A DNA stretch of 64,000 nt from Gemmatimonadaceae bacterium (GTDB lineage: Bacteria; Gemmatimonadota; Gemmatimonadetes; Gemmatimonadales; Gemmatimonadaceae): positions 64,001-128,000 of the forward strand of contig JBHYGA010000001.1 of NCBI GenBank assembly GCA_051859245.1, in the 5' to 3' direction. Below, piece by piece: positions 354 through 14,468 of this stretch. The position numbers and the translations under genes were made by a program. Position 1 is the first letter of the stretch. Every line of letters begins with the position of its first letter. The notes under the pieces were generated by a model that was not told the DNA's origin, searched no databases, and worked only from the letters and a program-made list of their open reading frames with translations.

Positions 354-1970
354 GTGTCCCGAACACCACTGTTTTCGCTCATCCGTCGTTCGCTGCAACT
401 CGCGCGACACGCAGCACTTACCAACACGCCCGCCGCCGATGTGCACGACGAGTGGCGGGAGCGGTCCGCTCTGACGCGACGGCACTTCGTTGCGGGATCA
501 TCGGCCGCCGTCGCGCTGTTCGCAGCCGGCGCGTGTGCGCCGCCGAGCCGCGCTGGAGGATCGGCCGGCGTGCGGGCGGCGCCATCGCGCGTGAATGATG
601 GAGAGCCGGTGGTGATCGTAGGCGCCGGCATTGCGGGGCTCACGTGTGCGTACCGGTTGCGACAGGCGGGCATTGCCGTACGAGTAATCGAAGCACAGTC
701 GCGTACGGGCGGACGCATGTTCTCGCTGCGCAATCATTTCGCTGACGGACAGGTGTGCGAGCTCGGCGGTGAACTCATCGATACGGGACACACCCACATT
801 CGGTCGTTGGCGCAGGAACTGAACATTCCGCTCAACGATCTCGCAACGGACGATCCCGCGCTCGACGAAACCGTCTGGCATGTGGACGGTGCGAAGCGCA
901 GCGAAGAAGATGTGATCGAGGCGTTTCTTCCGCTCGCCAAACGGATTCTTGCCACACTCGAGCCATTTGGCGACGAGTTTGATCCCACGGCGCTCGCGCC
1001 CCAAGGTGCCGAGTCGCTCGATCGCCTGACGCTGGCGGAATGGTTTGACCGCGAAGGTGTGTCTGGATGGCTGCGCAAGCTGCTCGACGTTGCGTACACC
1101 ACGGAGTACGGTCTCGAACCGCATCGACAGTCGGCGCTCAACTTTCTGTTGATGATCGATCCCGACGCGCCGCCGTTCCGCGTGTTCGGCGAGAGTGATG
1201 AGCGTTTTCACGTGCAGGGTGGCAATGATCGCATTGTCAGTACGCTGGCTGAACGCGTCGCCGATCAGATCGAAACGAACACCGTGCTGGAAGCGGTAAC
1301 ACGGCGTGCAGACGGGCGGCACACACTCACCTTTCGGCGTGACAGCGGTGTGCGCACCGTGATTGCACGACACGTGGTGCTCGCCATGCCCTTCACCGTG
1401 TTGCGTGATGTGCAGCTCGATGTGCCCATGTCGCCCGCCAAACGTCGCGCGATTGCCGAGCTGGGCTACGGTACGAACGCCAAGTTGATGATTGGGTTCT
1501 CATCGCGACCGTGGCGCGAACAGCACGGATCCAATGGCAGTGTGGTCACGGATCTGCCGTTTCAGCTCGTGTGGGAAACAAGTCGACTGCAACCGGGCCG
1601 CGCGGGGATTCTTACAAACTTCAGTGGTGGCGAACACGGAGTCGCGGTGGCTCAGGGCAGCGCCACGGAACAGGCCAACGCACTGGTGCGCGACCTGGAG
1701 AAGATCTTTCCCGGCGTGCAAGCGGCGCGCGAGGGCATGACCGAGGCGCGGTTTCACTGGCCCACCAATCGATGGGTACGTGGGAGCTACGCGAGCTTTC
1801 TCGCGGGACAGTGGACGACGGTGCGCGGGCTTGAGGCGCAGTCAGTGGACACACTGCACTTCGCGGGCGAACACTGTTCGCTCGACGCGCAGGGCTACAT
1901 GGAGGGTGGGTGCGAAACCGGGGAGCAAGCCGCCACGCGAATTGTCGAAGCGCTCGTGGGCGCTCAATGA
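354..1970 (+). CDS. Flavin monoamine oxidase family FAD-dependent oxidoreductase, probably Tat-exported
   Basis: VVIVGAGIAGL FAD-binding motif, EAQSRTGGR, ELGGELI, C-terminal HFAGEH...GYMEGG; TRRHFV Tat-like motif; GTG at 354 after GGAG chosen over TTG at 321. Confidence 0.9.
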   Translation: MSRTPLFSLIRRSLQLARHAALTNTPAADVHDEWRERSALTRRHFVAGSSAAVALFAAGACAPPSRAGGSAGVRAAPSRVNDGEPVVIVGAGIAGLTCAYRLRQAGIAVRVIEAQSRTGGRMFSLRNHFADGQVCELGGELIDTGHTHIRSLAQELNIPLNDLATDDPALDETVWHVDGAKRSEEDVIEAFLPLAKRILATLEPFGDEFDPTALAPQGAESLDRLTLAEWFDREGVSGWLRKLLDVAYTTEYGLEPHRQSALNFLLMIDPDAPPFRVFGESDERFHVQGGNDRIVSTLAERVADQIETNTVLEAVTRRADGRHTLTFRRDSGVRTVIARHVVLAMPFTVLRDVQLDVPMSPAKRRAIAELGYGTNAKLMIGFSSRPWREQHGSNGSVVTDLPFQLVWETSRLQPGRAGILTNFSGGEHGVAVAQGSATEQANALVRDLEKIFPGVQAAREGMTEARFHWPTNRWVRGSYASFLAGQWTTVRGLEAQSVDTLHFAGEHCSLDAQGYMEGGCETGEQAATRIVEALVGAQ

Positions 1971-1986: not shown

Positions 1987-4578
1987 TCATTCGCTTGCCA
2001 CGGGCGCGAGCACTGCGGTGAGTTGCTCGATCGTCACGGGCTTCGCGAAGTGGTGATGAAAGCCGGCCTCCCGTGCGCGTCGTTGATCGTTTGAGGTCGC
2101 ATATCCCGTGAGCGCGACGAGTCGAGTCGTCGCGAACGCCGGATCCTTCGAAACCTGCGCGGCAACTTCGTAGCCGCTCGCGTCTGGCAGTCCGATATCG
2201 CAGATCAAGACATCAGGTTGGAGCGTTCGCATCATCTCCAGCCCGGACGCCGCGGTATGTGCGACAACCACATCGTGTCCGGCCACTTCGAGGGCGTAGC
2301 GCAACGTCTCCGCGGCGTCGACGTTGTCTTCAATGATCTGGACGCGACTTGCGCGCGCCAGAGCGCTCGGTGACAACGAGGCACTCGCATCGTCACGGGC
2401 CTGCGCCGCCGTATCGCCAGCCACTTCGAGCGGCAGGGTCACAACGAATGTTGAACCGTGACCCATACCTGCGCTGCGCGCGTCCACGGTACCGCCGTGC
2501 ATCTCAACAATCGAGCGTACGAGTGACAATCCGAGACCGAGTCCACCGTCACGGCTTGCTGGACGGAACGCCTGTACGAATGGTCGGAAGAGCCTCGGGA
2601 GCACGTCCGGTGCAATGCCCTCGCCGTGGTCGACGATTCGTACCGAGGCGCGAGCGGGTGCGTCATGCAGACTCACCGTCAGCAGCACTTCTCCGCCGTC
2701 AGGACTCGCTTTCACCGCATTGTCGATCAAGTTGCAGAGCACTTGCGAAATACGATTGCAGTCTGCATCGAGGCAGACCGGCGTTTCGGGCGCGACGAGG
2801 GTGAGGATCACGTTGGCGCGCGCGGCGGATATGCGTTGGTCTTCCACGCAGTCGCGTACAACTTGCGAGAGGTCGATGCGCGCCAAACGAAGTTTGAATT
2901 TGTTTTGCTTGATGCGCGTGATGTCGAGCAAATCGTCGGTCAGACGCTGCAGCTGACGCATCTGTCGCTGCATGATATCGAGTGCCCGCGCGGACGAAAA
3001 AGTGCCATGGCCGTTCTCCGACTCGCGCAACACGAACAGACTATTGGAGATGGTGGCCAGCGGATTCCGCAGTTCGTGCGCGAGTAAACCGATAAAGTCG
3101 TCTTTACGCTTGTCGACCTCTGAAAGTGCCTCTCCCTGCGATCGCAGCGTCTCGGCCTGCAGCTGCAGGTCTTCGTTTTGCGCGCGGATTTCTTCGCTCT
3201 GTGCCTGCAGTTCTTCGTTCTGCGCCTGGATTTCTTCTCCCTGCGATTGCAGTTCTTCATTCTGGACTTGCAGTTCTTCGCGCTGCGCCTGAATCAGCTC
3301 GTTCGCAGCGGTCGCGTCTTCGAGCAGTCGCTGGTTCTGTTCAAACGCGCGCACATTGTCGAACCCGACCGCCAGTTGTTGCGCAGCCCCCTCCACGAAC
3401 TGCACCGCATCCTCATCCAGCTCGCGCAACGATGCGAGGACAATCACACCGAGCACTTCATGGCGATACAGCAGGGGGACAGAGACGACGCTGCGTGCCG
3501 GTGCACGATCAAATCCAATACGCACCTGAAAGGCGCTGTCATCGGGAATGCCGCGAATCCTTATGGTCTTGCGCTCACGGGCGCTGTCGTTGGGAACGCC
3601 CTGCGCCTCGGGCAACTCCGGCGGCTCCACGCCGAGTCCACGCGATGCAACGGGGGTGAGCGTGGTTCCCGCGGTGCAGGCGTACACCACGCCGAGCTCC
3701 GCCTGCACGTGCTCGCCGATCGCCTCAAGTGCGCATTTCGCGATCAGTGCCGTTGACAGGCCGGCGGCGGCCGCGCTCGCCACCGCGCGACCGGCTTCCA
3801 GCCGACGCTCGCGCAGCTCAATGGCGGCGGCTGCGCTGCCAAAGGCGGCGCGAAGCTGCATCAGCTCATTGCGTGATCGTGCATCCGTGGGATCCACCGA
3901 CATACTGAGCGCGGCCCGCCAGTCAGAGGCGGACATGGCGCGCGCTGCGCGCAGGAGGTCGCGAGCCGGCCGGCGAACGGAGATCGCAATCAGACTGGCG
4001 ATCACGACAAATGCCAACAGGCTCACCACCGAAGCCGCCGTTACGGCGCTGCGCACGGCTTGCTGTGCCGATGCCATCGCGTTCATCGATTGGCCGACGG
4101 CCGTGCGATGATCCCCGATGAACCGATCAAGATCGTCCGTGAATGCCAGACGCCGGTCGCGAAGCGCATTCTGCGCGTCATCACCCATGCGCGCCCCGAC
4201 CGTTTCCTGGGCGGCGATCAGATACGTGTCGATCCGCTGCGCAATAGACACGAACGTGCCGTCGTTTGCTGTCAGCTGTCGCAGTCGTGCCAACTGTTCG
4301 CGTGCAGCCTGCAGATCACTGCCAAACGTCAGTCTGTTTTCTTCCGTCGGTGCGATCTGCACAGCACGTGCCGCGACCGCGACTGCGAGTACGCGTCCGC
4401 GCAAGTTGAGCGCCGCTTCAAGGCGTGGCGCGTGCCGCGTGGTGAACTGTTGCTCGGCCCGCTCGCTGCGCTGGTTGACATGCCGCACCATCAACAACGC
4501 CGCGATATTGATGCCCAGCAGCAGCACGAATCCGACACCGAGTCGTTGCGCGATGCTCAGGTTTGCCCCTCCGCTCAT
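1987..4578 (-). CDS. Membrane hybrid sensor histidine kinase (2 TM, GAF, coiled coil, HisKA, HATPase, receiver)
   Basis: LAHELRNPL H-box, NLIDNAVK N-box, DHGEGI, GLGLGL, receiver IIEDN...CDIGLP...FAKP; ATG at 4578 overlaps the CheR stop (ATGA). Confidence 0.92.
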   Translation of the reverse strand: MSGGANLSIAQRLGVGFVLLLGINIAALLMVRHVNQRSERAEQQFTTRHAPRLEAALNLRGRVLAVAVAARAVQIAPTEENRLTFGSDLQAAREQLARLRQLTANDGTFVSIAQRIDTYLIAAQETVGARMGDDAQNALRDRRLAFTDDLDRFIGDHRTAVGQSMNAMASAQQAVRSAVTAASVVSLLAFVVIASLIAISVRRPARDLLRAARAMSASDWRAALSMSVDPTDARSRNELMQLRAAFGSAAAAIELRERRLEAGRAVASAAAAGLSTALIAKCALEAIGEHVQAELGVVYACTAGTTLTPVASRGLGVEPPELPEAQGVPNDSARERKTIRIRGIPDDSAFQVRIGFDRAPARSVVSVPLLYRHEVLGVIVLASLRELDEDAVQFVEGAAQQLAVGFDNVRAFEQNQRLLEDATAANELIQAQREELQVQNEELQSQGEEIQAQNEELQAQSEEIRAQNEDLQLQAETLRSQGEALSEVDKRKDDFIGLLAHELRNPLATISNSLFVLRESENGHGTFSSARALDIMQRQMRQLQRLTDDLLDITRIKQNKFKLRLARIDLSQVVRDCVEDQRISAARANVILTLVAPETPVCLDADCNRISQVLCNLIDNAVKASPDGGEVLLTVSLHDAPARASVRIVDHGEGIAPDVLPRLFRPFVQAFRPASRDGGLGLGLSLVRSIVEMHGGTVDARSAGMGHGSTFVVTLPLEVAGDTAAQARDDASASLSPSALARASRVQIIEDNVDAAETLRYALEVAGHDVVVAHTAASGLEMMRTLQPDVLICDIGLPDASGYEVAAQVSKDPAFATTRLVALTGYATSNDQRRAREAGFHHHFAKPVTIEQLTAVLAPVASE

Positions 4579-5450
4579 GCGGCACACTCCGAGGCGCGTT
4601 GGTGAAACACCCGGCTCCGCGGCGACGAGGAGAAGAGGCCGCTGGCCGCGGGACCGCAAGGCCATTCCGCCTCGCCCACGCACAGGAATCCGGCTGGTGC
4701 AAGCGCTCGTTGCAAACGAAGAAACGTTCGCTCCTGAGCCGCGCGCTGAAAGTAGATCATCACGTTCCGGCAGCAAATCAGATCGAACGCGCCCTCACCG
4801 GGAGCGGGATGCGCTGAGAGCAGGTCGTGCGTCGCAAAGCGAACCAGACCCTGCAACTCGGCGTTCACGAGGACGCTGCTCTCGCCCAGGCGGTGCGTGA
4901 GATAGCGGCCAGCCAGCGCCGGAGGCAGCGCCCGAGTTGCGTCGATGCTGTACTGTGCCCGACGCGCAAATGTCAGTGCGGTAGCGTCAATGTCAGTCGC
5001 CTCGATGATCCCGTCGATGCGCTGTGCGTGCAGCAGCATCGCAAGCGTCCACGCTTCTTCCCCGCGCCCACAGCCGGCACTCCATATCCGGAGCGGGCGA
5101 AATCGCGCCGCCTCGGACAACGCCGGAAGAATGCGCGTCTGCAGCAAAGTGAACACGTCAGGATTTCGATAGAACTCGCTCACCTTGATTGAAATGCGCT
5201 GCAGCAACGAGTGCGCTTCGTCAGGCGCGCGCGCGATCCGCTGCGCATACAAATCAACGCTTGGCGACGCAATCGACAGCATGCGGTTGCGAATGCGACG
5301 TTCAACCGTGGACCGGCGGTACTCGCGAACGTCAACTCCGGTGTGATGGCGCAGCGCGTCAATGATGGCGTCGATCTGCGCATCATCTCCGTCCGATCCC
5401 AGGCGGCCCGCTTCGGACTGCGGAGGACATACATCGTCGTCGATCATCAC
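4575..5450 (-). CDS. cheR: CheR-type protein-glutamate O-methyltransferase
   Basis: YRRSTVERRI, ISIKVSEFYRN, IWSAGCGRGEEAW, ATDID, HDLL, FDLICCRNVMIYF, LCVGEAE. Confidence 0.88.
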   Translation of the reverse strand: MMIDDDVCPPQSEAGRLGSDGDDAQIDAIIDALRHHTGVDVREYRRSTVERRIRNRMLSIASPSVDLYAQRIARAPDEAHSLLQRISIKVSEFYRNPDVFTLLQTRILPALSEAARFRPLRIWSAGCGRGEEAWTLAMLLHAQRIDGIIEATDIDATALTFARRAQYSIDATRALPPALAGRYLTHRLGESSVLVNAELQGLVRFATHDLLSAHPAPGEGAFDLICCRNVMIYFQRAAQERTFLRLQRALAPAGFLCVGEAEWPCGPAASGLFSSSPRSRVFHQRASECAA

Positions 5451-5590
5451 TTGGCTATTGGCGGCGAGGCGCTTTCGTGCGATGGCACGGCGCAGTCTGC
5501 GACGGTTTGCGTAGCCATGGCGTCAACCCGAAAATAGTCAGTTCTGAGACTGTGCCTATTGCACTTAAGGGCTAGACACAACTGTCGTGT

Positions 5591-5638
5591 TCGGCACCGA
5601 AGCCGCTCGGCACCGCAGGCGCTCGGTACGGCGGGTGC
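5591..5638. repeat. Three degenerate 16-bp tandem repeats
   Basis: tcggcaccgaagccgc / tcggcaccgcaggcgc / tcggtacggcgggtgc, ending 5 bp before the palindromic element. Confidence 0.7.
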
Positions 5639-5643
5639 TCGCC

Positions 5644-5884
5644 GTTGCAGTTCCTGATTCGGTCATTCGGCCCACGTGCAGGAGCCCACGGCCATTTGGC
5701 CTTTCGGCCTCACCGTTTCGAAGCGTCGCACCCAGAGAAAATGCAACCCGGAGCTCAGCGCTATTGGCGCAGATCCTCCGGGCTGTTTTGTATCAGTGTG
5801 CGAACTTTCGAAACGGTGAGGCCGAAAGGCCAAATGGCCGTGGGCTCCGTCTACTGGGCCGAATGACCGAATCAGAACTGCAAC
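5644..5884. repeat. ~240-bp long inverted-repeat (rod-like hairpin) element, copy A; REP/MITE-like or structured RNA
   Basis: Outer arms gttgcagtt(c)ctgattcggtcattcggccca / tgggccgaatgaccgaatcagaactgcaac; a perfect 42-bp inner stem; further pairing to the apex; related copy at 13021. Confidence 0.9.
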
Positions 5885-8427
5885 TACACCCCAACCAACT
5901 CCGGCTCCTCAACCGCCTCGTGCACCCCACCGCCAACCAGCGCGATCTTGAGCACTTCCTGCAGTGTCTCGACCGGATGAAACGTCAGCGTATCCTTCAC
6001 ATCCTGCGGGACATCCTCAAGGTCATCAAAGTTGCTCTTGGGCAGAATGATGGTCGTGACGCCGGCACGATGCGCGCCGAGCACTTTTTCCTTGAGCCCA
6101 CCAATCGGGAGCACACGTCCGCGCAGCGTGATTTCACCTGTCATCGCGACATCGCGCCGCACTTTGCGATTCGACATTTCTGACACAAGCGCGGTGGCAA
6201 TCGCAATGCCGGCACTCGGGCCATCTTTGGGAATGGCACCAGCGGGCACGTGAATGTGTGCTTCGCTCGCACTCGCGATGCGTTCCGCCGGAATGCCCAG
6301 CACATCGGCATTGTTCGTCGCGTACGTGAGCGCCGCGCGCGCACTCTCCTTCATCACGTCACCAAGCTGACCGGTGAGAATGAGTGAAATCGGGCCAACG
6401 CGCACATTCTCCGACTCCTCACTATCGCGAGGCCGTGACACCGCACCACGACGAATGGACGCTTCCACGAACATGATGTCGCCGCCCATGGGCGTGTAGT
6501 ACATGCCAGAGGCAATGCCGACCTCGTCGTGCTCGGCTACATGCTCCGGATGCACCTTCGGTCGACCCAGCAGCTCTCGCACCTCTTCGGAGCTCACGCG
6601 ATTGTCCGCCAGCACGGCTTCGTCGCCAGAGGCCACGCGACGCGCGACCTTGCGCGCCACCGCACCCAGCTGACGCTCAAGCTGTCGCACACCAGACTCG
6701 CGCGTGTATTCGGTGATCACCTTGTTCACCGCGTCGTCATCAAAGGTGAGATTGCGGCCTGACAATCCCGATTCTTCGAGTTGACGCGGAATCAGATACT
6801 TCTTGGCGATTTCCAGCTTTTCGCGCTCGGTGTAGCCACTGAAATCCACCACTTCCATACGATCAAGCAGCGGACCGGGAATATTCTGCACAAAGTTTGA
6901 CGTCGCGATGAACAACACTTCGCTCAGATCAAACGGAATGCCGAGATAGTGATCGGTGAACGAATCGTTCTGCGCCGGATCAAGCACTTCCAGCAACGCG
7001 CTCGACGGATCGCCCTGGAACGACGAACCGAGCTTGTCAATTTCGTCGAGCAGGAAGACCGGATTCTTTGTGCCGGCCTGCTTCATGCCGGCCACAATTC
7101 GACCGGGCAGCGCACCCACGTACGTACGACGATGTCCGCGGATGTCCGCTTCATCGCGCGCACCACCAAGCGCCACGCGCACGTACTCACGACCGAGGGC
7201 TCGCGCCACCGACTTCGCGATCGACGTTTTGCCGACGCCTGGCGGGCCGGTGAAGAGCAGAATCGGGCCCTTCGCCATTGCGCGCGCTTTCGCCTCGCGC
7301 GTATCGGTGATGGCGCGGTCCTCGTGTGCTTTGCCGCTGTCCTCATCACGCAATTTCGACGCGGGAAACTCGCCCGTGGTCGCCACTTCTTCGGCTAACT
7401 GCTGCGCGCGAAGCTGACGCACCGCGAGGAACTCCAGCACGCGATCCTTGACGTCCTTGAGACCGTAGTGGTCGTCGTCAAGAATGTGCTGCGCACCGGC
7501 CAGATCGAGGTGATCATCCGACCGCGTATTCCACGGCAACTCAGCGATCCACTCCAGATACGTGCGAATGACCTGCGCTTCCATGGATTCGCGTCCCGTG
7601 CGCTCAAGACGCCCAAGTTCTCGCTCCACTTCCGCGCGCGCTTCTTTCGGGAGCTGCAGCGCGTTCAGCTTCTCACGCAGCTCCTCGATTTCCTTGGACT
7701 GATCGTCGTCGCCCAGCTCTTTCTGAATCGCCTTGAGCTGTTCGCGCAAGAACATTTCGCGCTGCCGCTCGCCCAGCTCCTCCTGGACCTGCGACTTGAT
7801 GTCTTCCTGCGCCTCAAGCAGCCCGATCTGACGCTGCACGTGCACCAGCACACGGCGCAGGCGCTCTTCAACAGAGAGCGTCTCCAGCAGCCCCTGTTTT
7901 TCGGGCACGGTCAGTTCGATGTAGCCGGCCACCAGATCCGAGAACCGGCCCGGTTCGGTGACTGAGTCCAGCACCTGGTGCAGCACTTCTTCGGGCAAGC
8001 CGCGCTTTTCGCCCAGCTCGGCGGCCCGCTCGCGCGTTTCCTTGTGTAACGCCTCGAAGGCCGGATCCTTGGGCTCCAGCGGCAGCATTTCATCGGCCGC
8101 GACCACCACCGCCTGCAAATGGCCGTCCGACTCCGAGTAGTGCAGGGCGGTGGCCCGCTGCTCGCCCTGGAGCAGCAACTGCACGCCGCCCAGACCGCGC
8201 TGGATCTGTCCGATCCGGGCAATCACGCCCATGCTATAGAGAATGTCCGAAGACGGTTCCTCGGTATTGTCTCGCTGGGCCACCGCAAAAACGACCCGGT
8301 CGCCCTTCAAGGCGGCCTCGATCGCTCGCAAGGTGCCCGGGCGTCCCGCGGCAATCGGCGCGGTGATACCTGGGAACATGACCGTCCCACGGAGGGGCAG
8401 GACGGGAAGGGTTTGACGCTCGCCCAT
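5884..8427 (-). CDS. lon: ATP-dependent Lon protease (endopeptidase La)
   Basis: LPVLPLR N-domain, GPPGVGKT Walker A, RGHRRTYVGA, LLDEIDK, PKDGPSAG catalytic Ser, GGLKEK Lys; ATG at 8427 after AGGAAG. Confidence 0.97.
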   Translation of the reverse strand: MGERQTLPVLPLRGTVMFPGITAPIAAGRPGTLRAIEAALKGDRVVFAVAQRDNTEEPSSDILYSMGVIARIGQIQRGLGGVQLLLQGEQRATALHYSESDGHLQAVVVAADEMLPLEPKDPAFEALHKETRERAAELGEKRGLPEEVLHQVLDSVTEPGRFSDLVAGYIELTVPEKQGLLETLSVEERLRRVLVHVQRQIGLLEAQEDIKSQVQEELGERQREMFLREQLKAIQKELGDDDQSKEIEELREKLNALQLPKEARAEVERELGRLERTGRESMEAQVIRTYLEWIAELPWNTRSDDHLDLAGAQHILDDDHYGLKDVKDRVLEFLAVRQLRAQQLAEEVATTGEFPASKLRDEDSGKAHEDRAITDTREAKARAMAKGPILLFTGPPGVGKTSIAKSVARALGREYVRVALGGARDEADIRGHRRTYVGALPGRIVAGMKQAGTKNPVFLLDEIDKLGSSFQGDPSSALLEVLDPAQNDSFTDHYLGIPFDLSEVLFIATSNFVQNIPGPLLDRMEVVDFSGYTEREKLEIAKKYLIPRQLEESGLSGRNLTFDDDAVNKVITEYTRESGVRQLERQLGAVARKVARRVASGDEAVLADNRVSSEEVRELLGRPKVHPEHVAEHDEVGIASGMYYTPMGGDIMFVEASIRRGAVSRPRDSEESENVRVGPISLILTGQLGDVMKESARAALTYATNNADVLGIPAERIASASEAHIHVPAGAIPKDGPSAGIAIATALVSEMSNRKVRRDVAMTGEITLRGRVLPIGGLKEKVLGAHRAGVTTIILPKSNFDDLEDVPQDVKDTLTFHPVETLQEVLKIALVGGGVHEAVEEPELVGV

Positions 8428-8659
8428 AAATGACTTCCTGGCTCGGGAGAAAAGAGAATGTGCATGACAGGAGCACGATTCGCACCCACCCAAGTGTGCC
8501 ACCGTGGCAGACTCTGCAACTTTCCCATGACCTCGTGACGTAGTGCTCCCTACCCGGCTGCCGACTCGGCGGACCGGCTGTTGTATCGCTGTCTCGTTGT
8601 GCTACACTACCACGACCTATCAGGTCGACTCCCTGTTTCTGTCCCTGGATCCCAAGCGC

Positions 8660-10678
8660 GTGCACGATTCCGCCGCCTCGAGCGACGCCGAACTCAGAGA
8701 ACACGTCCAACGCACCCTCGCCGCGACCTACGATGTCGAGCGGGAAATCGGTCGCGGAGGGATGGGCGTTGTCTACCGTGCCATCGACAAGCGACTCAAG
8801 CGACCGGTCGCGATCAAGCTGTTGCCGCCGGAGCTCGCGTTTCGTCGCGATGTGCGTCAGCGCTTTCAGCGTGAGGCCGAAACCGCGGCGCAGCTGAGTC
8901 ATCCGAACATTGTGCCGATCTATTCTGTTGATGAGATAGGTAACCTTGTGTTTTTCGTGATGGCGTGTGTTGATGGCGACAATCTCGCCACACAGTTGCG
9001 CAAGCGCGGGCCGTTGCCGCCCACGGAGATTCAGCGCTATCTCATGGAAGTCGCGGACGCGCTCACGTACGCGCACGCGCGCGGCGTAATCCATCGTGAT
9101 ATCAAGCCCGACAATATTCTGATCGACGCACTCGACGGACGCGCGCTGGTGACCGATTTCGGTATCGCGCGCGCGGCCGAGGGCGGTGAAGGCGGTGACG
9201 GCTCACGGCTCACGGCCACAGGTCTGGCCATTGGTACGCCCGCGTACATGTCGCCGGAACAAGCGTCGGGCGATCGCGACATTGACGGACGCACTGATTT
9301 GTACGCCTTGGGCGTTGTGGCGTACCAGATGCTCACCGGGGAGCCGCCGTTCACCGGCAACACCACGCCGGTGTTGCTCGTCAAGCATCTCACGGAAACA
9401 CCCGTGCCCGTGGAAGAGCGGCGTCCGGATACGCCGCCGATTCTCGCGGCCATGGTGATGCGACTGCTCGAGAAGGATCCGAGTCACCGGTTCCAGAGTG
9501 CAGGCGAGTTTGCGCAAGCGCTGCGCTCGGGTATCGTGCCGTCGGCGACGTTCTCCACGATGCCGTCGCGTTCATCACGACCGCTTCAGAGCAGCGCGAA
9601 CGTCGGCAGCGGCGTACCGGCCACGGCGCCGCTCGCGTCGCGGCAGCCGTTCGCTGCACCAGTGTCGTTGCCACGCACCTCAAGCGGTGCCTACGCACCG
9701 CTTGACGGCGATCAGTACGTGCCAACGGCCGAAGAACTGGTCCGCTGGGAAGCACCGGTGGTGCAGAAATTCCGCAGCAAGCTCGCGCCGTTTCTGTTCG
9801 TGAACGGTGTGATGATCGTGGTGTCAATCTTTGCGGGTTCGAACTTTTTGCCAATCACGGCGATCTGGTCGATCGTGCTGTCGTATCAGTACGCGAAGCT
9901 GTGGTCTGATGGCTTCGACTGGCGCGATGTGTTGCGTCAGCCGCGCGACCGCATGTTCGGCGATGTCATCTCCGATGTGGGCGATTCAGTTCAGTCCGCA
10001 TTCTCCGCCAAGAAGCGAGAAGAGTTGCGAGCGTTGGGTCGAACCGGCTCCGGTCTTTCCGGCGCGTTGTCCCCGCGCTCACCGGTTCGCGGTTTAGCCC
10101 CGGGTGCCGCGCCAACGACGCCCGCATCCTTCGGAGCGCAGAGTCCGGTCGTCGATGGTGCGCGCGGTGCACGCGACGAAATCGTACGCTTGCTCGCCAC
10201 GTTGCCCGCCGCCGATCGCAGCAAGATTCCCGACGTTGCGCAAACGGCGAATTCGCTGGTGCAAAAGGTGGAGCAGCTGGCCCACTCGATCGCGATGACC
10301 GAGGAGGCGATGAACGCAAAACCGCTTACCACCATCGACGCCGAGATCGAACGCCTCGAAGCGGCAGCAAATCCGCTGGAGGCAGGCTCCGACACGCGCG
10401 TGCGAAGACTGGCGCTGCTGCGCCGCGAACGCCGCGCCGCGCTCGACTATGATCGCAAGCGCGAAGACGCGCGGTCCCGTCTCGATTCGTGCACGCTGGC
10501 ACTCGAAAATATTCGTCTGGACCTGGTGCGTTTGCGCACGGGCGGCAGCACCGTGCAAAGTGTGACGCTCGTGGCGGAGCAGGCAATGGCCGTGGCGCGG
10601 GAAGTGGATCGCGTGGTGGAGGCGGCACAGGAAGTACGTGAACTCACGTCCGCGCGCGGTGCTGGTTCGTCCCGCTAG
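8660..10678 (+). CDS. Hanks-type Ser/Thr protein kinase with one membrane hairpin and a C-terminal helical domain
   Basis: GRGGMGVV, AIK, HRDIKPDN, DFG, GTPAYMSPEQ; hydrophobic pair FLFVNGVMIVVSIF / FLPITAIWSIVL; start uncertain (GTG 8660 chosen). Confidence 0.92.
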   Translation: MHDSAASSDAELREHVQRTLAATYDVEREIGRGGMGVVYRAIDKRLKRPVAIKLLPPELAFRRDVRQRFQREAETAAQLSHPNIVPIYSVDEIGNLVFFVMACVDGDNLATQLRKRGPLPPTEIQRYLMEVADALTYAHARGVIHRDIKPDNILIDALDGRALVTDFGIARAAEGGEGGDGSRLTATGLAIGTPAYMSPEQASGDRDIDGRTDLYALGVVAYQMLTGEPPFTGNTTPVLLVKHLTETPVPVEERRPDTPPILAAMVMRLLEKDPSHRFQSAGEFAQALRSGIVPSATFSTMPSRSSRPLQSSANVGSGVPATAPLASRQPFAAPVSLPRTSSGAYAPLDGDQYVPTAEELVRWEAPVVQKFRSKLAPFLFVNGVMIVVSIFAGSNFLPITAIWSIVLSYQYAKLWSDGFDWRDVLRQPRDRMFGDVISDVGDSVQSAFSAKKREELRALGRTGSGLSGALSPRSPVRGLAPGAAPTTPASFGAQSPVVDGARGARDEIVRLLATLPAADRSKIPDVAQTANSLVQKVEQLAHSIAMTEEAMNAKPLTTIDAEIERLEAAANPLEAGSDTRVRRLALLRRERRAALDYDRKREDARSRLDSCTLALENIRLDLVRLRTGGSTVQSVTLVAEQAMAVAREVDRVVEAAQEVRELTSARGAGSSR

Positions 10679-10681
10679 CAG

Positions 10682-12997
10682 ATGATGGTGACACCGATGA
10701 ACTCAACGGATCTCGCTGGCGCGCCTCGCCCCGATGACAGCGAGCTGTTGTTGGCGCGCGTTCGCGTCGCCGTGGCAGAACGCTACGACGGATTGCGTGA
10801 GATCGGGCGCGGTGGCATGGCGGTGGTGTATGCGGCGCGCGATCGCAAACTCAACCGCGATATCGCGCTCAAGGTCTTGCCACCGGATCTCGCGTTCCGC
10901 AGCGATGTGCGCGAGCGCTTTGTGCGCGAAGCGCAAACTGCGGCGCGCTTGAACCACCCCAGCATTGTGCCCATTTATGCGGTGGACGAAGCGGAAGGCC
11001 TCGTGTATTTCGCGATGGCGCTGGTGCAGGGCGAGAGTCTGGCAACACGCTTGTCGCGTGAACCGAGGCCGCCGCTGGCGTTTGTGCGCAATGTGCTCGC
11101 ACAGGTGGCGGATGCGCTGGCGTACGCGCACCGCTCCGGCGTGGTGCACCGCGATATCAAGCCCGACAACATTCTGCTTGAACACGCCACTGGCCGCGCG
11201 ATTGTCACCGACTTTGGCATCGCGCACGCTGTGCAGAGCGGCGCACGCCTGACGCAAACAGGCATCGCGGTCGGGACACCGGCGTTCATGAGCCCAGAAC
11301 AGGCCATGGGACAGCGAGATGTCGACGGCCGCAGCGATGTCTACGGGCTCGGCGTGGTGGGCTACGTCATGCTCACGGGTCGTTTGCCGTTTGACGCGGA
11401 AACAAGCGCAGGCATGCTCGTGCAGCACGTGCAGGGCACACCGTTTCCGATTGCGAACTTTCGTCCCGATCTGCCGTTCAGCATTACCGATGCGATCACG
11501 CGCGCGATATCGCGTGAGCCGTCCGCGCGTTGGTCCGATGCGGCGGCGTTTGCTGCGGCGTTGCGAGCCGGTGATGACGACGATCGTGCGGGTGAGCGTG
11601 AACGTGCGGAACGAGATCGCCAGCGCGCCGCGCGGGCCCTCGAGTTACGGGCGGCGACCGAGGGGCGGAACGTTGGCCTGGCGCGAGGTGCTGAGCCATA
11701 CCTGGCGCAGTATGATGCGGTCGCGTCTGGTGAACGCGAGCTGGCGCACGCGCGACAGCACGTTGATCGCTCCATGCAGCGCGTGAGCTCCTCACTTGGC
11801 GAGTCGATGGAGCGGATGAACGAATCACTCGCGTACGCCGGCGAACAGTTGCGTCGCTCGCGCGGTGCGGTGGCACCGGTTGATGAGCCGGCTGACGGTA
11901 AAGGCATTTCCCGCAATCGACGCATTGGCAAGTTCCGGTTGCACGCGGTTCAGGCGGCGATGCTGATGTTGATGCTGTTTGTGATCAACATGGTGACATC
12001 GGATGCATTTCCGTGGTTCATCTTTCCGAGTTTTGGCATTTCGCTTGGACTTATCGGCTCTCTGATCGGCCTTCGCGAACACGACATCCGTCTGCGTGAT
12101 GTGTTGCGCGGCCATATGCTCGATGAGCCGCAGCCCGTTGCGACATCCACAAAGGCACAGCGTGCGCGTGAAGTGCTGCGCGACTTCAAGCGGCGTGCGA
12201 AGTGGGTTGGTATCTCATTGCTCGGTTCCGCCGCCGGACTGGTTGGACTCGCGGCCTCAGGCGGTGCGGAACCGTTTCTGGTTCCGTTCCTCGGCGGTGG
12301 CGCACTCGCACTGTACAACGGAGTGCTGCTCACGCGCGATGCGTTGCGACTGCGCGACGTTGGTCTGACCACGCGCGACGCGATCGGCGAAAGCTGGCAG
12401 GACAAAATCGCCGCCATGGATGACCGTCCGCGCAGCGTGCGCATGGCGCAGGAGACGGCGCTGCTCGCTGATCCGGAAGTGCTGAGATCGCCGCACGGTC
12501 GTGTGTTGCGCGAAGCGGTGGATGACTGCACCACAATTCGCGAGACGTGGGCGAAGCTTGACGCGGCAGACCGTGAGCTCGTGCCCGATGTCGGCCCCAC
12601 GGCCGATGCGCTCCTTGAGCGCGTGTCCGCATTGGTGAGTAATCTGGCGCGGCTCGACGGAGCGGTGGACGCGCACTCGCTGCCGTCGCTCGAGGCGCGC
12701 ATTGCCGAGGCTGAATCGATTGAGTCGCCAACGGTGGAGGCGGAGCGTCGGCTGACACTGCTCAAGCGGCAGTATGCATCATTGCAGGAGCTGGTGGAGC
12801 GGCAGGACGCGCTGCAGCGACAGCTGGAAAGTGCATCGCTGGCACTGCGTTCACTCAGGCTCGATGTGGTAAAGTTGCGCGCGCTGGGTGTTGGGGCCGC
12901 GATTGGTGACGTGACCAGCGCAACGCAGGAAGCGCGCGCGATTTCCAAGGATATTGGAAGGGCGTTGGATGTCGCGGAGGAGATGCGGCGGCTGTAG
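10682..12997 (+). CDS. Hanks-type Ser/Thr protein kinase with two membrane hairpins and a C-terminal helical domain, paralog of the upstream kinase
   Basis: GRGGMAVV, ALK, HRDIKPDN, DFG, GTPAFMSPEQ; 2TM-like FVINMVTSDAFPWFIFP segment; starts 3 bp after the previous stop. Confidence 0.92.
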   Translation: MMVTPMNSTDLAGAPRPDDSELLLARVRVAVAERYDGLREIGRGGMAVVYAARDRKLNRDIALKVLPPDLAFRSDVRERFVREAQTAARLNHPSIVPIYAVDEAEGLVYFAMALVQGESLATRLSREPRPPLAFVRNVLAQVADALAYAHRSGVVHRDIKPDNILLEHATGRAIVTDFGIAHAVQSGARLTQTGIAVGTPAFMSPEQAMGQRDVDGRSDVYGLGVVGYVMLTGRLPFDAETSAGMLVQHVQGTPFPIANFRPDLPFSITDAITRAISREPSARWSDAAAFAAALRAGDDDDRAGERERAERDRQRAARALELRAATEGRNVGLARGAEPYLAQYDAVASGERELAHARQHVDRSMQRVSSSLGESMERMNESLAYAGEQLRRSRGAVAPVDEPADGKGISRNRRIGKFRLHAVQAAMLMLMLFVINMVTSDAFPWFIFPSFGISLGLIGSLIGLREHDIRLRDVLRGHMLDEPQPVATSTKAQRAREVLRDFKRRAKWVGISLLGSAAGLVGLAASGGAEPFLVPFLGGGALALYNGVLLTRDALRLRDVGLTTRDAIGESWQDKIAAMDDRPRSVRMAQETALLADPEVLRSPHGRVLREAVDDCTTIRETWAKLDAADRELVPDVGPTADALLERVSALVSNLARLDGAVDAHSLPSLEARIAEAESIESPTVEAERRLTLLKRQYASLQELVERQDALQRQLESASLALRSLRLDVVKLRALGVGAAIGDVTSATQEARAISKDIGRALDVAEEMRRL

Positions 12998-13020
12998 TCA
13001 CGTAGTCGCGGCGGCGAGAG

Positions 13021-13258
13021 GTTGCAGTTCCTGATTCGGTCATTCGGCCGCTCTTGGCGGAGCCCACGGCCATTCGGCCTTTCGGCCTCGCAGATTCGTA
13101 CGACGGCACAGAGCATCAATCCGTTCTTTGCATGGCCGCAAGACCGGTCACACTTCCTTTTGTACGTTCCGTGCAGCCTTTCGAAACGGTGAGGCCGAAA
13201 GGCCAAATGGCCTTGGGCTCCGTCAAAAGCGGCCGAATGACCGAATCAGAACTGCAAA
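13021..13258. repeat. ~240-bp long inverted-repeat element, copy B (same family and orientation as copy A)
   Basis: gttgcagttcctgattcggtcattcggcc ... ggccgaatgaccgaatcagaactgcaa; the same single-C bulge on the left arm; different centre. Confidence 0.9.
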
Positions 13259-13285
13259 AGCATTCGGCCTGAAATACGGACGGGC

Positions 13286-13600
13286 CTAGTCCAAGGTATC
13301 CAGAAACGCTTCCAGATCTCCCACGAGCGTTGGATGCCGGTGCCGATTCGCGGCGTCAATCCCCTTGGCAATCGCGCTACGCGCATCCGCGATCCGATCC
13401 ATATGTCGCAGTGATTCTGCGTAGCGCAGCCAGCCATTGCCTTCGTCGTCATGCATGTCGAGATACTGCGCGAAATGCTCCACCGCCTCGGCGTGCGCGC
13501 CCGTTTTTGCGAGCTCGGTGGCCAGGCCAAATCGCGCCATCGCGTGCGCCGGCTGACGTGCAACCATCACACGGAATGTTTCTAATCGATCATTGCTCAT
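13286..13600 (-). CDS. Small tetratricopeptide-repeat protein
   Basis: MSNDRLETF..., ARFGLATELAKTG...AVEHF, GWLRYAESLRHMDRIADARSAIAKGI TPR pattern; GGGAG Shine-Dalgarno before ATG 13600. Confidence 0.8.
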   Translation of the reverse strand: MSNDRLETFRVMVARQPAHAMARFGLATELAKTGAHAEAVEHFAQYLDMHDDEGNGWLRYAESLRHMDRIADARSAIAKGIDAANRHRHPTLVGDLEAFLDTLD

Positions 13601-13622
13601 TGCGGCTCCCGTGCGCTGCAGA

Positions 13623-14468
13623 TCATTGAACCAGTAACTCCGCCACGGCCATGGCCAGTCGATCAGGCGCTTCTTCTGGAATGGCGTGTGACATGCCGGC
13701 CAGTCGGTGCACCGTGAGTGATCCACCCACGCACTCTGGCAAGGCGCGGCGCAGCGACTCACCGCCGCGAGGCACAAACGGATCGTCCGCACCGAGCATC
13801 AAGCTAACCGGCATCTGCAAGCTAGCGGGGGCCATGGCGATCGGACCAGCAACGGACGCAATCGACTCGAGCTGTCGGCATGCAACCTCTCGTCCCTCTT
13901 CGCTGCGAAACACTTTCAGCGAGACGTCAGTGGCGTTCGCCGCGAGCAAACGATTGGTGTAACCGCGTACGAGTGCGCTATGCAGCGCCGACGCCAGCCA
14001 GTCCGGTGGCAACATGCGCCAGACGCGCGTGGCGCGCGCCAGTCGTCGCACGCTGCGTGGCGCCTCGACGCTTTCGCCGTTGGGCCGCAACAGGCATGGA
14101 TTGCACAGCAACAATCGCTCGACGCGTTCCGGCGCGGCTTGTGCGATCGCGACGGCAACCGCCGCCCCCAAGCCGTGTCCCACGACGCACGCGGGTTCAA
14201 CGCCGAGCGCCGAGAGCAACGCGACCACGCGCGACGCGTGCGCCAGGGTTCCGAAATCGGCATCGCGTGGGAGATCACTGCGGCCGTGGCCAAGCAGGTC
14301 GATGACCAGCACGCGGTGTCCCTTGGGCAGACGCGAAATCAGGTCGCGCCAAATGTGCGACGATGTGAATGCACCGTGCAGCAACACGATCGGCTCGCCT
14401 GCGCCGCGCGTGCCGGCCGCGAAGCAGTAGAGACGCGTATCATCAAGGTCGACAAACTCGCCGCGCAT
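13623..14468 (-). CDS. Alpha/beta fold hydrolase
   Basis: LLHGAF, IDLLGHGRSD, VGHGLG at the nucleophile elbow, GADD, SHAIPEEAP. Confidence 0.85.
   Translation of the reverse strand: MRGEFVDLDDTRLYCFAAGTRGAGEPIVLLHGAFTSSHIWRDLISRLPKGHRVLVIDLLGHGRSDLPRDADFGTLAHASRVVALLSALGVEPACVVGHGLGAAVAVAIAQAAPERVERLLLCNPCLLRPNGESVEAPRSVRRLARATRVWRMLPPDWLASALHSALVRGYTNRLLAANATDVSLKVFRSEEGREVACRQLESIASVAGPIAMAPASLQMPVSLMLGADDPFVPRGGESLRRALPECVGGSLTVHRLAGMSHAIPEEAPDRLAMAVAELLVQ

Follow-up and report, generated by a model that had tools for sequence, protein, structure and literature searches.

Long hairpin elements dispersed through a Gemmatimonadaceae genus and their probable tie to a four-helix-bundle gene

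Copies A and B and the family in their genome

The stretch of DNA analysed here (the window) comprises 64,000 nucleotides of a Gemmatimonadaceae bacterium (GenBank assembly GCA_051859245.1, contig JBHYGA010000001.1, positions 64,001 to 128,000 of the forward strand) and contains two long hairpin elements without a gene of their own, copy A and copy B, which belong to a dispersed family. The genome holding the window, hereafter G000, is a 4.70-Mb assembly of 11 contigs with 62% G+C and 99.87% completeness, and the window lies on its contig C1; handles of the same kind are used for the other genomes. Both copies are full elements, given without a strand, and they score 220.6 bits (copy A, 5644..5884, 241 bp) and 223 bits (copy B, 13021..13258, 238 bp) with a covariance model of the family that is described below. 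The left arm of copy A (5644..5731) runs from the terminus GTTGCAGTT to an inner GCAC and contains short tandem units, ATTCGGNC twice and GGCCNTTN three times. Its centre (5732..5797, 66 nt) is unusual in being self-paired (z -3.34) and holds GATCCTCCGGGC, a motif also present in centres of copies in G007, G008 and G014, and its right arm (5798..5884) leads from an inner GTGC to the terminus CTGCAAC. Copy B consists of a left arm (13021..13109), an unstructured centre of 61 nt (13110..13170, z -0.18) that is unrelated to the centre of copy A, and a right arm (13171..13258). Copy A shares its final base with the stop codon of a gene for a Lon-like protease (5884..8502, minus strand), which places the element at a host 3' end, and copy B is flanked by convergent genes for a Ser/Thr kinase (10682-12997, plus) and a TPR protein (13286-13792, minus).

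Folded as single strands, both copies are rods, with -119 kcal/mol for copy A (z -20.7) and -90.8 kcal/mol for copy B (z -10.9), and for neither did any of 200 shuffles do as well. A first-pass annotation of this DNA had described rod-like palindromes at these very coordinates, and the folding energies bear it out for both. Much of what it said about the two copies is also correct on alignment: the outer arms align and the centres do not, the compensated arm difference between GGCCCA/TGGGCC in copy A and GGCCGCT/AGCGGCC in copy B is real, and so is the GCAC/GTGC clamp, with GC or CG pairs in 35 of the 35 copies aligned below. The near-constant length that it noted extends to the family, in that the 17 full copies of G000 measure 227-246 bp.

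BLAST and profile searches agree on 34 arm-bearing places in G000, namely these 17 full copies, three partial or rearranged ones and 14 of the 22 contig ends. Given that so many contig ends stop inside an arm, each of them 57-146 bases into it, the palindromes have fragmented the assembly. Five pairs of these ends are bridged in G002 by ordinary copies of about 240 bp; the starts of C1, C4, C6 and C10 stop in an arm and are unpaired, and could hide a longer element. An additional remnant of about 65 bp was spotted by eye. The total for G000 is roughly 25 copies, all of them between protein-coding genes.

Each copy follows one plan, with two arms of about 88 nt, a centre of about 60 nt (57-69 nt) and the termini GTTGCAGTT...AACTGCAAC. 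The arms consist of short units in tandem (ATTCGGNC twice, GGCCNTTN three times) and end inwards in the GCAC/GTGC clamp. A second GCAC/GTGC step and CGTACGTTCCGTGC recur further in; the TTTTGTA shared by copies A and B is not a family motif. A single-C bulge had been thought to set a common orientation. Most copies lack it and carry CAGGAAC or CGGGAAC facing GTTCCTG or GTTCCCG, bulge-free; therefore the bulge is no trait of the family and no marker of orientation, and four of ten orthologous pairs are in fact flipped. Pairing almost to the apex, finally, was read correctly for copy A and applies to its orthologue as well, but it does not describe the family: across the 35 copies the centres are no more stable on folding than their shuffles (mean z -0.63), with 7 of the 35 below -2.

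Several reduced or rearranged forms accompany the full copies. Two mini forms of 62-65 bp (C4:995957-996018 and C4:832690-832755) retain only the outer arm ends and look like internal deletions; the latter has a full copy at its G002 counterpart. At C5:97894-98097 a right arm, 24 bp and a left arm follow each other tail to head without their partner arms, in the same arrangement as in G002 (L011), and G008 has a comparable pair of bare termini, likewise tail to head, downstream of its Lon orthologue (L202:1360-1410). Searches in databases gave no known family: none of the covariance models of Rfam 15 matched window positions 5000-14000 on either strand at E up to 1, as the first-pass annotation would have it for a new element, and blastn against a plasmid collection returned nothing similar to the elements. 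Contig C3 of G000 was considered as a hidden insertion sequence and rejected, as it contains ordinary long ORFs (families unassigned) and no Rfam match. Integron attC sites were rejected on sequence alone, with no search for intI made, since the elements end in GTT...AAC and not AAC...GTT and the copies are dispersed and not arrayed.

With a custom ORF caller, 16 of 21 places in G000 lie 0-90 bp after a stop codon. Several of the 21 are between convergent genes and one is between divergent genes. Orientation relative to genes varies among the genomes. All five copies in a tandem-gene context in G007 are co-oriented with the upstream gene, and the polarity is 8 to 2 in G008 and G014 together, where orientation calls are weak, and 7 to 5 in G000 by our own reading of the gene-context and alignment results. 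Directly after several copies (in the right flanks of C5:62446-62678 and C1:951138-951369, at L104:617-660 and in L096) we observed a short G+C-rich hairpin with A/T runs that resembles an intrinsic terminator; in these cases the element therefore sits between stop codon and terminator.

Pairing, rates and inversions

Pairing was analysed on an alignment of 35 copies, 17 from G000 and 18 from G002, in which 95.9% of the stem cells are standard pairs. Double-sided changes occur at 19 of 63 pairs, compared with 9.2 +/- 1.6 in shuffles, none of which (0 of 500) reached 19. The covariation score is 0.122, against 0.052 for shuffled alignments and 0.025-0.046 when the partners are slid. At one pair position CG, AU, UA and GC are all seen across the copies, and across the genus, in an alignment of 81 copies, whole stem blocks switch in step, with GTCATT/AATGAC in G000 and G002 versus TCTTTG/CAAAGA in G007.

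The same pattern is found within single loci. Among 11 orthologous pairs of G000 and G002, both partners changed in 37 of 691 stem cells, and pairing was kept in 27 of the 37; independence would predict 7.0 +/- 2.3 double changes, with a maximum of 17 in 2000 shuffles. Given this excess in orthologues, pairing has been re-established in place after the divergence of the two species. The proposal of the first-pass annotation that structure is kept beyond sequence is thus upheld twice, by covariation above both controls and by the 37 double changes.

Arms and centres evolve at different rates. Between G000 and G002 orthologues, 768/916 positions of the outer arm are identical (83.8%), compared with 781/900 for the mid arm (86.8%) and 392/576 for the centre (68.1%), and four-fold sites of the two genomes are 60.6% identical (2023/3337). 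The arms are far above the four-fold value and the centre is near it; therefore the arms are under constraint and the centre evolves at nearly the neutral rate. The centre of the element is a nearly neutral spacer and not cargo, contrary to the variable cargo region that had been suggested, as it is 68% identical where four-fold sites are 61% identical and folds no better than shuffles. On the same grounds we rejected the idea that it is a structured domain: the 35 centres fold like shuffles and evolve almost neutrally. Concerted evolution was also rejected as the cause of arm conservation, given that orthologues share locus-specific variants and that the consensuses of G000 and G002 are the same. 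Moreover, homogenisation within a genome would not be expected to slow the divergence between species.

Four of ten orthologous pairs, copy A included, match better in reverse relative to their flanks, and in G002 the orientation of copy A with respect to Lon is reversed. If the two arms recombined, the element would be inverted and changes would be copied from one arm to the other, which would offer a mechanical route to compensatory changes. By itself, arm recombination probably does not explain the slow rate of the arms; purifying selection would keep the stem intact after insertion. The sense strand shows 186 G.U versus 145 A.C mismatches over 41 copies, a difference too weak to use.

Distribution in the genus and the four-helix-bundle gene

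We searched a covariance model (R1) built on the 35 copies against the genus (15 genomes) and against 76 further genera of Gemmatimonadaceae (148 genomes). The family is present in 11 of the 15 genus genomes, and with the stricter filters of Infernal none of the 148 genomes from the other 76 genera gave a match. Full hits across the genus all measure about 200-370 nt; longer versions of about 310-370 nt, which match the model only partly, were seen in G012 (L117-L122 and L149). Tandem arrays of elements occur. In G002, the species closest to G000, the 22 loci comprise 21 elements that map to 20 sites in G000, and every one of these sites holds an element or a remnant, which amounts to vertical persistence at orthologous sites. 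At a larger distance the sites differ. At least 12 sites that hold an element in G007, G008 or G014 correspond in G000 to flanks that adjoin each other without one, and no element was found beside the Lon orthologue in 10 loci scanned from nine other congeners, so that the copy A site is filled in G000 and G002 only. Given these differences between lineages, the family moved during the history of the genus. A dispersed family like those of REPINs (doublets of repetitive extragenic palindromic sequences, or REPs, that form hairpins) or MITEs (miniature inverted-repeat transposable elements), as the first-pass annotation had envisaged, is thus confirmed by roughly 25 copies and by presence/absence polymorphism, and the empty sites that it proposed to look for exist, both in G000 (at least 12) and, for copy A, in nine congeners.

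Further observations concern individual sites. In G012 the empty copy A site (L197:1380-1505) shows runs of a 9-nt unit, similar to TCATCTGCG, and of a 6-nt unit, GTTGCT, after the Lon stop; the latter resembles the terminal GCAGTT/GTTGC repeat of the element. Within the window, two neighbouring Ser/Thr protein kinase genes (8543-12997; 711 and 771 aa) lie together with the Lon-like gene between copies A and B. This block seems conserved in G002 with both elements, and a partial element stands there at a contig start, 7 kb from the orthologue of copy A. The genes for a hybrid histidine kinase and CheR beside copy A (1987-5450, C1:65987-69450) are absent from G002, where only a few bases separate the element from the 3' end of a gene matching window 1568-1970; the difference is a 3.7-kb indel ending at the element. 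At another G002 locus (L053:546-1738, C68) two elements enclose a gene for a 226-aa putative restriction endonuclease of the Uma2 family (PF05685, E 2e-27), and the counterpart in G000 (C5:184446-184682) is a single element. This site is either a second cassette of element, gene and element or the product of a deletion between direct copies; the Uma2 paralogues of G000 have no flanking hairpins.

The spacer between clpP and clpX is an element site shared across the genus. In G000, two full copies (C1:950460-950689 and C1:951138-951369) flank a gene on the opposite strand (C1:950759-951142) that encodes a four-helix-bundle protein of 127 aa (PF05635, E 1.4e-28; TIGR02436, E 1.3e-28; nearest solved structure 2gsc). 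This is the sole PF05635 gene of the genome. A four-helix-bundle gene enclosed by copies was among the things that the first-pass annotation had advised looking for, and it lies 880 kb outside the window. R1 elements stand on both sides of the gene in G000, G002, G008 and G014, and the R1 matches beside it are weaker or one-sided in G006, G007, G009, G012 and G013. The protein diverges quickly: lineages that share 95% identity in ClpX share 68% in the four-helix-bundle protein.

The association between this gene family and long hairpins is wider than the R1 family. Independent four-helix-bundle loci away from clp, in G005, G011, G012 and G013, have long hairpins with other sequences on either side; in G012, which has two such genes, the hairpins flanking one of them have arms of 87-96 nt. 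The hairpin type of G005, a genome without an R1-type copy, is dispersed, with 46 matches in that genome. Beyond the genus, the arms beside the four-helix-bundle genes of G022 and G074, which represent two other genera, give 32 and 42 dispersed matches, respectively. In a BLAST-based scan for inverted repeats, the gene was enclosed by an inverted repeat no shorter than 19 nt in 23 of 25 full loci of other genera, compared with 2/25 and 0/25 in control windows. Two layouts can be distinguished. In G000, G002, G005, G008, G012, G013 and G014 a complete hairpin stands on each side of the gene, which is not in the loop of one, and the form in which a single hairpin encloses the gene is seen at other loci of the genus and at the 23 of 25 loci of other genera.

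Interpretation and comparison with known systems

We consider it probable that copies A and B are gene-less members of a hairpin family that belongs with the four-helix-bundle gene of PF05635/TIGR02436. The layout resembles that of REPINs and their RAYT (REP-associated tyrosine transposase), with the four-helix-bundle protein in place of the transposase. By analogy, the element could be a selfish module that is tolerated in transcribed spacers. Its RNA would fold into a long stem that RNase III might trim, as has been shown only for intervening sequences (IVS) in the rRNA of other bacteria, and the four-helix-bundle protein, in the part of a RAYT, would bind the hairpin and be needed for its rare spread or its upkeep.

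A number of observations weigh against this reading. All 20 G000 sites are filled, and therefore there is no sign of recent movement since the split of G000 and G002. The vertically inherited clpP-clpX locus, with its four-helix-bundle gene, recurs in six genomes of the genus and so counts as one event. Given that the gene lies between two whole hairpins, the gene-less copies are not simple deletion derivatives of a unit of arm, gene and arm, and the copies that flank the gene are no closer to each other (72% alike) than the family average (73%). Four-helix-bundle genes also occur without R1-type copies in G001, G005 and G013; therefore the presence of the gene does not predict the R1 family. 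No catalytic activity is known for the four-helix-bundle family. The 23S rRNA gene of G000 is normal (2947 nt for a model of 2925 positions), and hence contains no true IVS. The mismatch counts (186 G.U, 145 A.C) lean weakly towards selection at the level of RNA, and the gene calls around the elements come from a crude ORF caller of our own. Finally, the flanks of 17 copies in G000 and 19 in G007 show no target-site duplication, although the junctions between filled and empty sites are too diverged to read.

That last point bears equally on an ordinary MITE. Here, the elements would derive by internal deletion from an insertion sequence of the DDE type with long terminal inverted repeats and would have been moved in trans by a transposase that is now lost or unassembled, and the position of the four-helix-bundle gene would reflect a shared preference for safe spacers. 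The terminal inverted repeats GTTGCAGTT...AACTGCAAC, which form part of the arms of about 88 nt, speak for such an origin, as do the polymorphism of sites across the genus and the subfamilies peculiar to each lineage, and the unpaired starts of C1, C4, C6 and C10 could conceal a longer element. Nonetheless, we regard it as improbable. No longer element bounded by arms was found among the 34 places in G000 or the hits of the covariance model in the genus (200-370 nt), though no general survey of transposases was made, no target-site duplication is visible at junctions that are too diverged to read, and in G002 ordinary copies bridge the five pairs of contig ends. The association of the gene with hairpins also recurs with unrelated hairpin sequences (G005, G022, G074 and 23 of the 25 loci in other genera), which a shared safe site fails to explain. 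If a RAYT (an IS200/IS605-type Y1 transposase) mobilised the elements, the family would be a set of true REPINs, in line with the dispersed hairpin repeat, the long vertical persistence at orthologous sites and the single-copy gene flanked by copies. The first-pass annotation had counted such an enzyme among the possible partners. It is very hard to credit here: PF01797 has no match in G000 or in any of the 15 genomes of the genus, with a control search positive in 6 of 14 genomes, the flanked gene encodes a four-helix-bundle protein and not a Y1 enzyme, and the elements are about twice the size of REPINs.

Alternatively, the element may serve the host as an RNA hairpin in the 3' untranslated region that ends or stabilises the upstream transcript in either direction, like REP in E. 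coli, in which case the sequence family would be a relic of common origin and the four-helix-bundle gene irrelevant. Position is in its favour, with 16 of 21 places 0-90 bp past a stop codon and a single one between divergent genes, and so are the purifying selection on the arms, the polarity towards the upstream gene in G007 (5/5) and in G008 and G014 (8 to 2), and the small surplus of G.U relative to A.C mismatches on the sense strand. Against it stand the separate hairpin like a canonical terminator that follows several copies and the loss of polarity in G000 (7 to 5), where four of ten orthologues are flipped. A role in termination also leaves the switches of whole stem blocks from lineage to lineage unexplained, together with the local hairpin families that flank four-helix-bundle genes. 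We think it unlikely as the primary account. It fits with a selfish element having later been put to use by the host, and such a role may well hold in addition to the link with the four-helix-bundle gene.

The nearest known system for that link is the IVS of 23S rRNA, in which the four-helix-bundle protein was first discovered. According to one study (PMC4990558), the IVS of Coxiella burnetii is 428 nt long, bears an S23p ORF and is excised by RNase III, and IVS with an ORF are described there as selfish hairpin elements that persist vertically after their acquisition. The likeness extends to the protein family (PF05635/TIGR02436), to inverted ends that pair into a long stem and to vertical persistence after acquisition, and in 23 of 25 Gemmatimonadaceae loci of other genera the gene lies between inverted arms as it does in an IVS. 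Unlike IVS, the elements described here stand outside rRNA, with no insertion at helix 25 or 45 in the 23S gene of G000, which is of normal length; moreover, most copies (about 25 per genome) are gene-less, and within this genus the gene has a complete hairpin on each side instead of standing in the loop of one. In a literature search, which left subscription journals mostly uncovered, no paper connected PF05635 genes to dispersed hairpin repeats outside rRNA, and none dealt with hairpin repeats of this kind in Gemmatimonadota.

REPIN-RAYT systems, reportedly described by Bertels and Rainey, share with the present family the dispersed intergenic hairpins, the single-copy gene flanked by copies, vertical inheritance with long persistence at orthologous sites, and lineage-specific repeat families beside the gene. 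A REPIN is a doublet of REPs of about 25 nt, whereas the elements here are about 240 bp long with arms of about 88 nt, and their partner is a four-helix-bundle protein in place of the Y1 transposase (0/15 genomes). MITEs of bacteria and intergenic palindromic repeats like Correia, ERIC and REP/BIME have terminal inverted repeats, lie between genes near gene 3' ends, and form tandem clusters and internally deleted mini forms. All these features are found in the family as well. Unlike these repeats, the elements have no parent insertion sequence or target-site duplication that we could find (with no general transposase survey, and at junctions too diverged to read), purifying selection acts on their arms, in which changes at orthologous sites are compensatory, and they are linked to a four-helix-bundle gene.

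A broader and rather doubtful possibility is that four-helix-bundle proteins and their cognate hairpins form a second vertically inherited pair of replicators, parallel to RAYT and REPIN. A small nucleic-acid-binding protein free of nuclease motifs would then recognise the stem blocks of its lineage, co-evolve with them and help the hairpin to be copied into transcribed spacers, and the IVS of 23S rRNA would be one landing niche among others.

IVS in rRNA and the small ORF in them were already on record in the 1990s, but neither a way of spreading nor a function of the protein is known. The genome studied here puts the same protein family in a setting that can be counted, with one gene and about 25 gene-less hairpins in G000 and with relatives that carry different hairpin families. 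Rates can be measured too: constraint acts on the arms, the centre evolves neutrally, the elements flip frequently and compensation takes place at the locus itself. For annotation, the family is a warning that these palindromes of 240 bp are neither the usual terminators nor REPINs that depend on a RAYT. For the biology of the four-helix-bundle family, it links the old puzzle of the IVS protein to a repeat family with which it can be tested.

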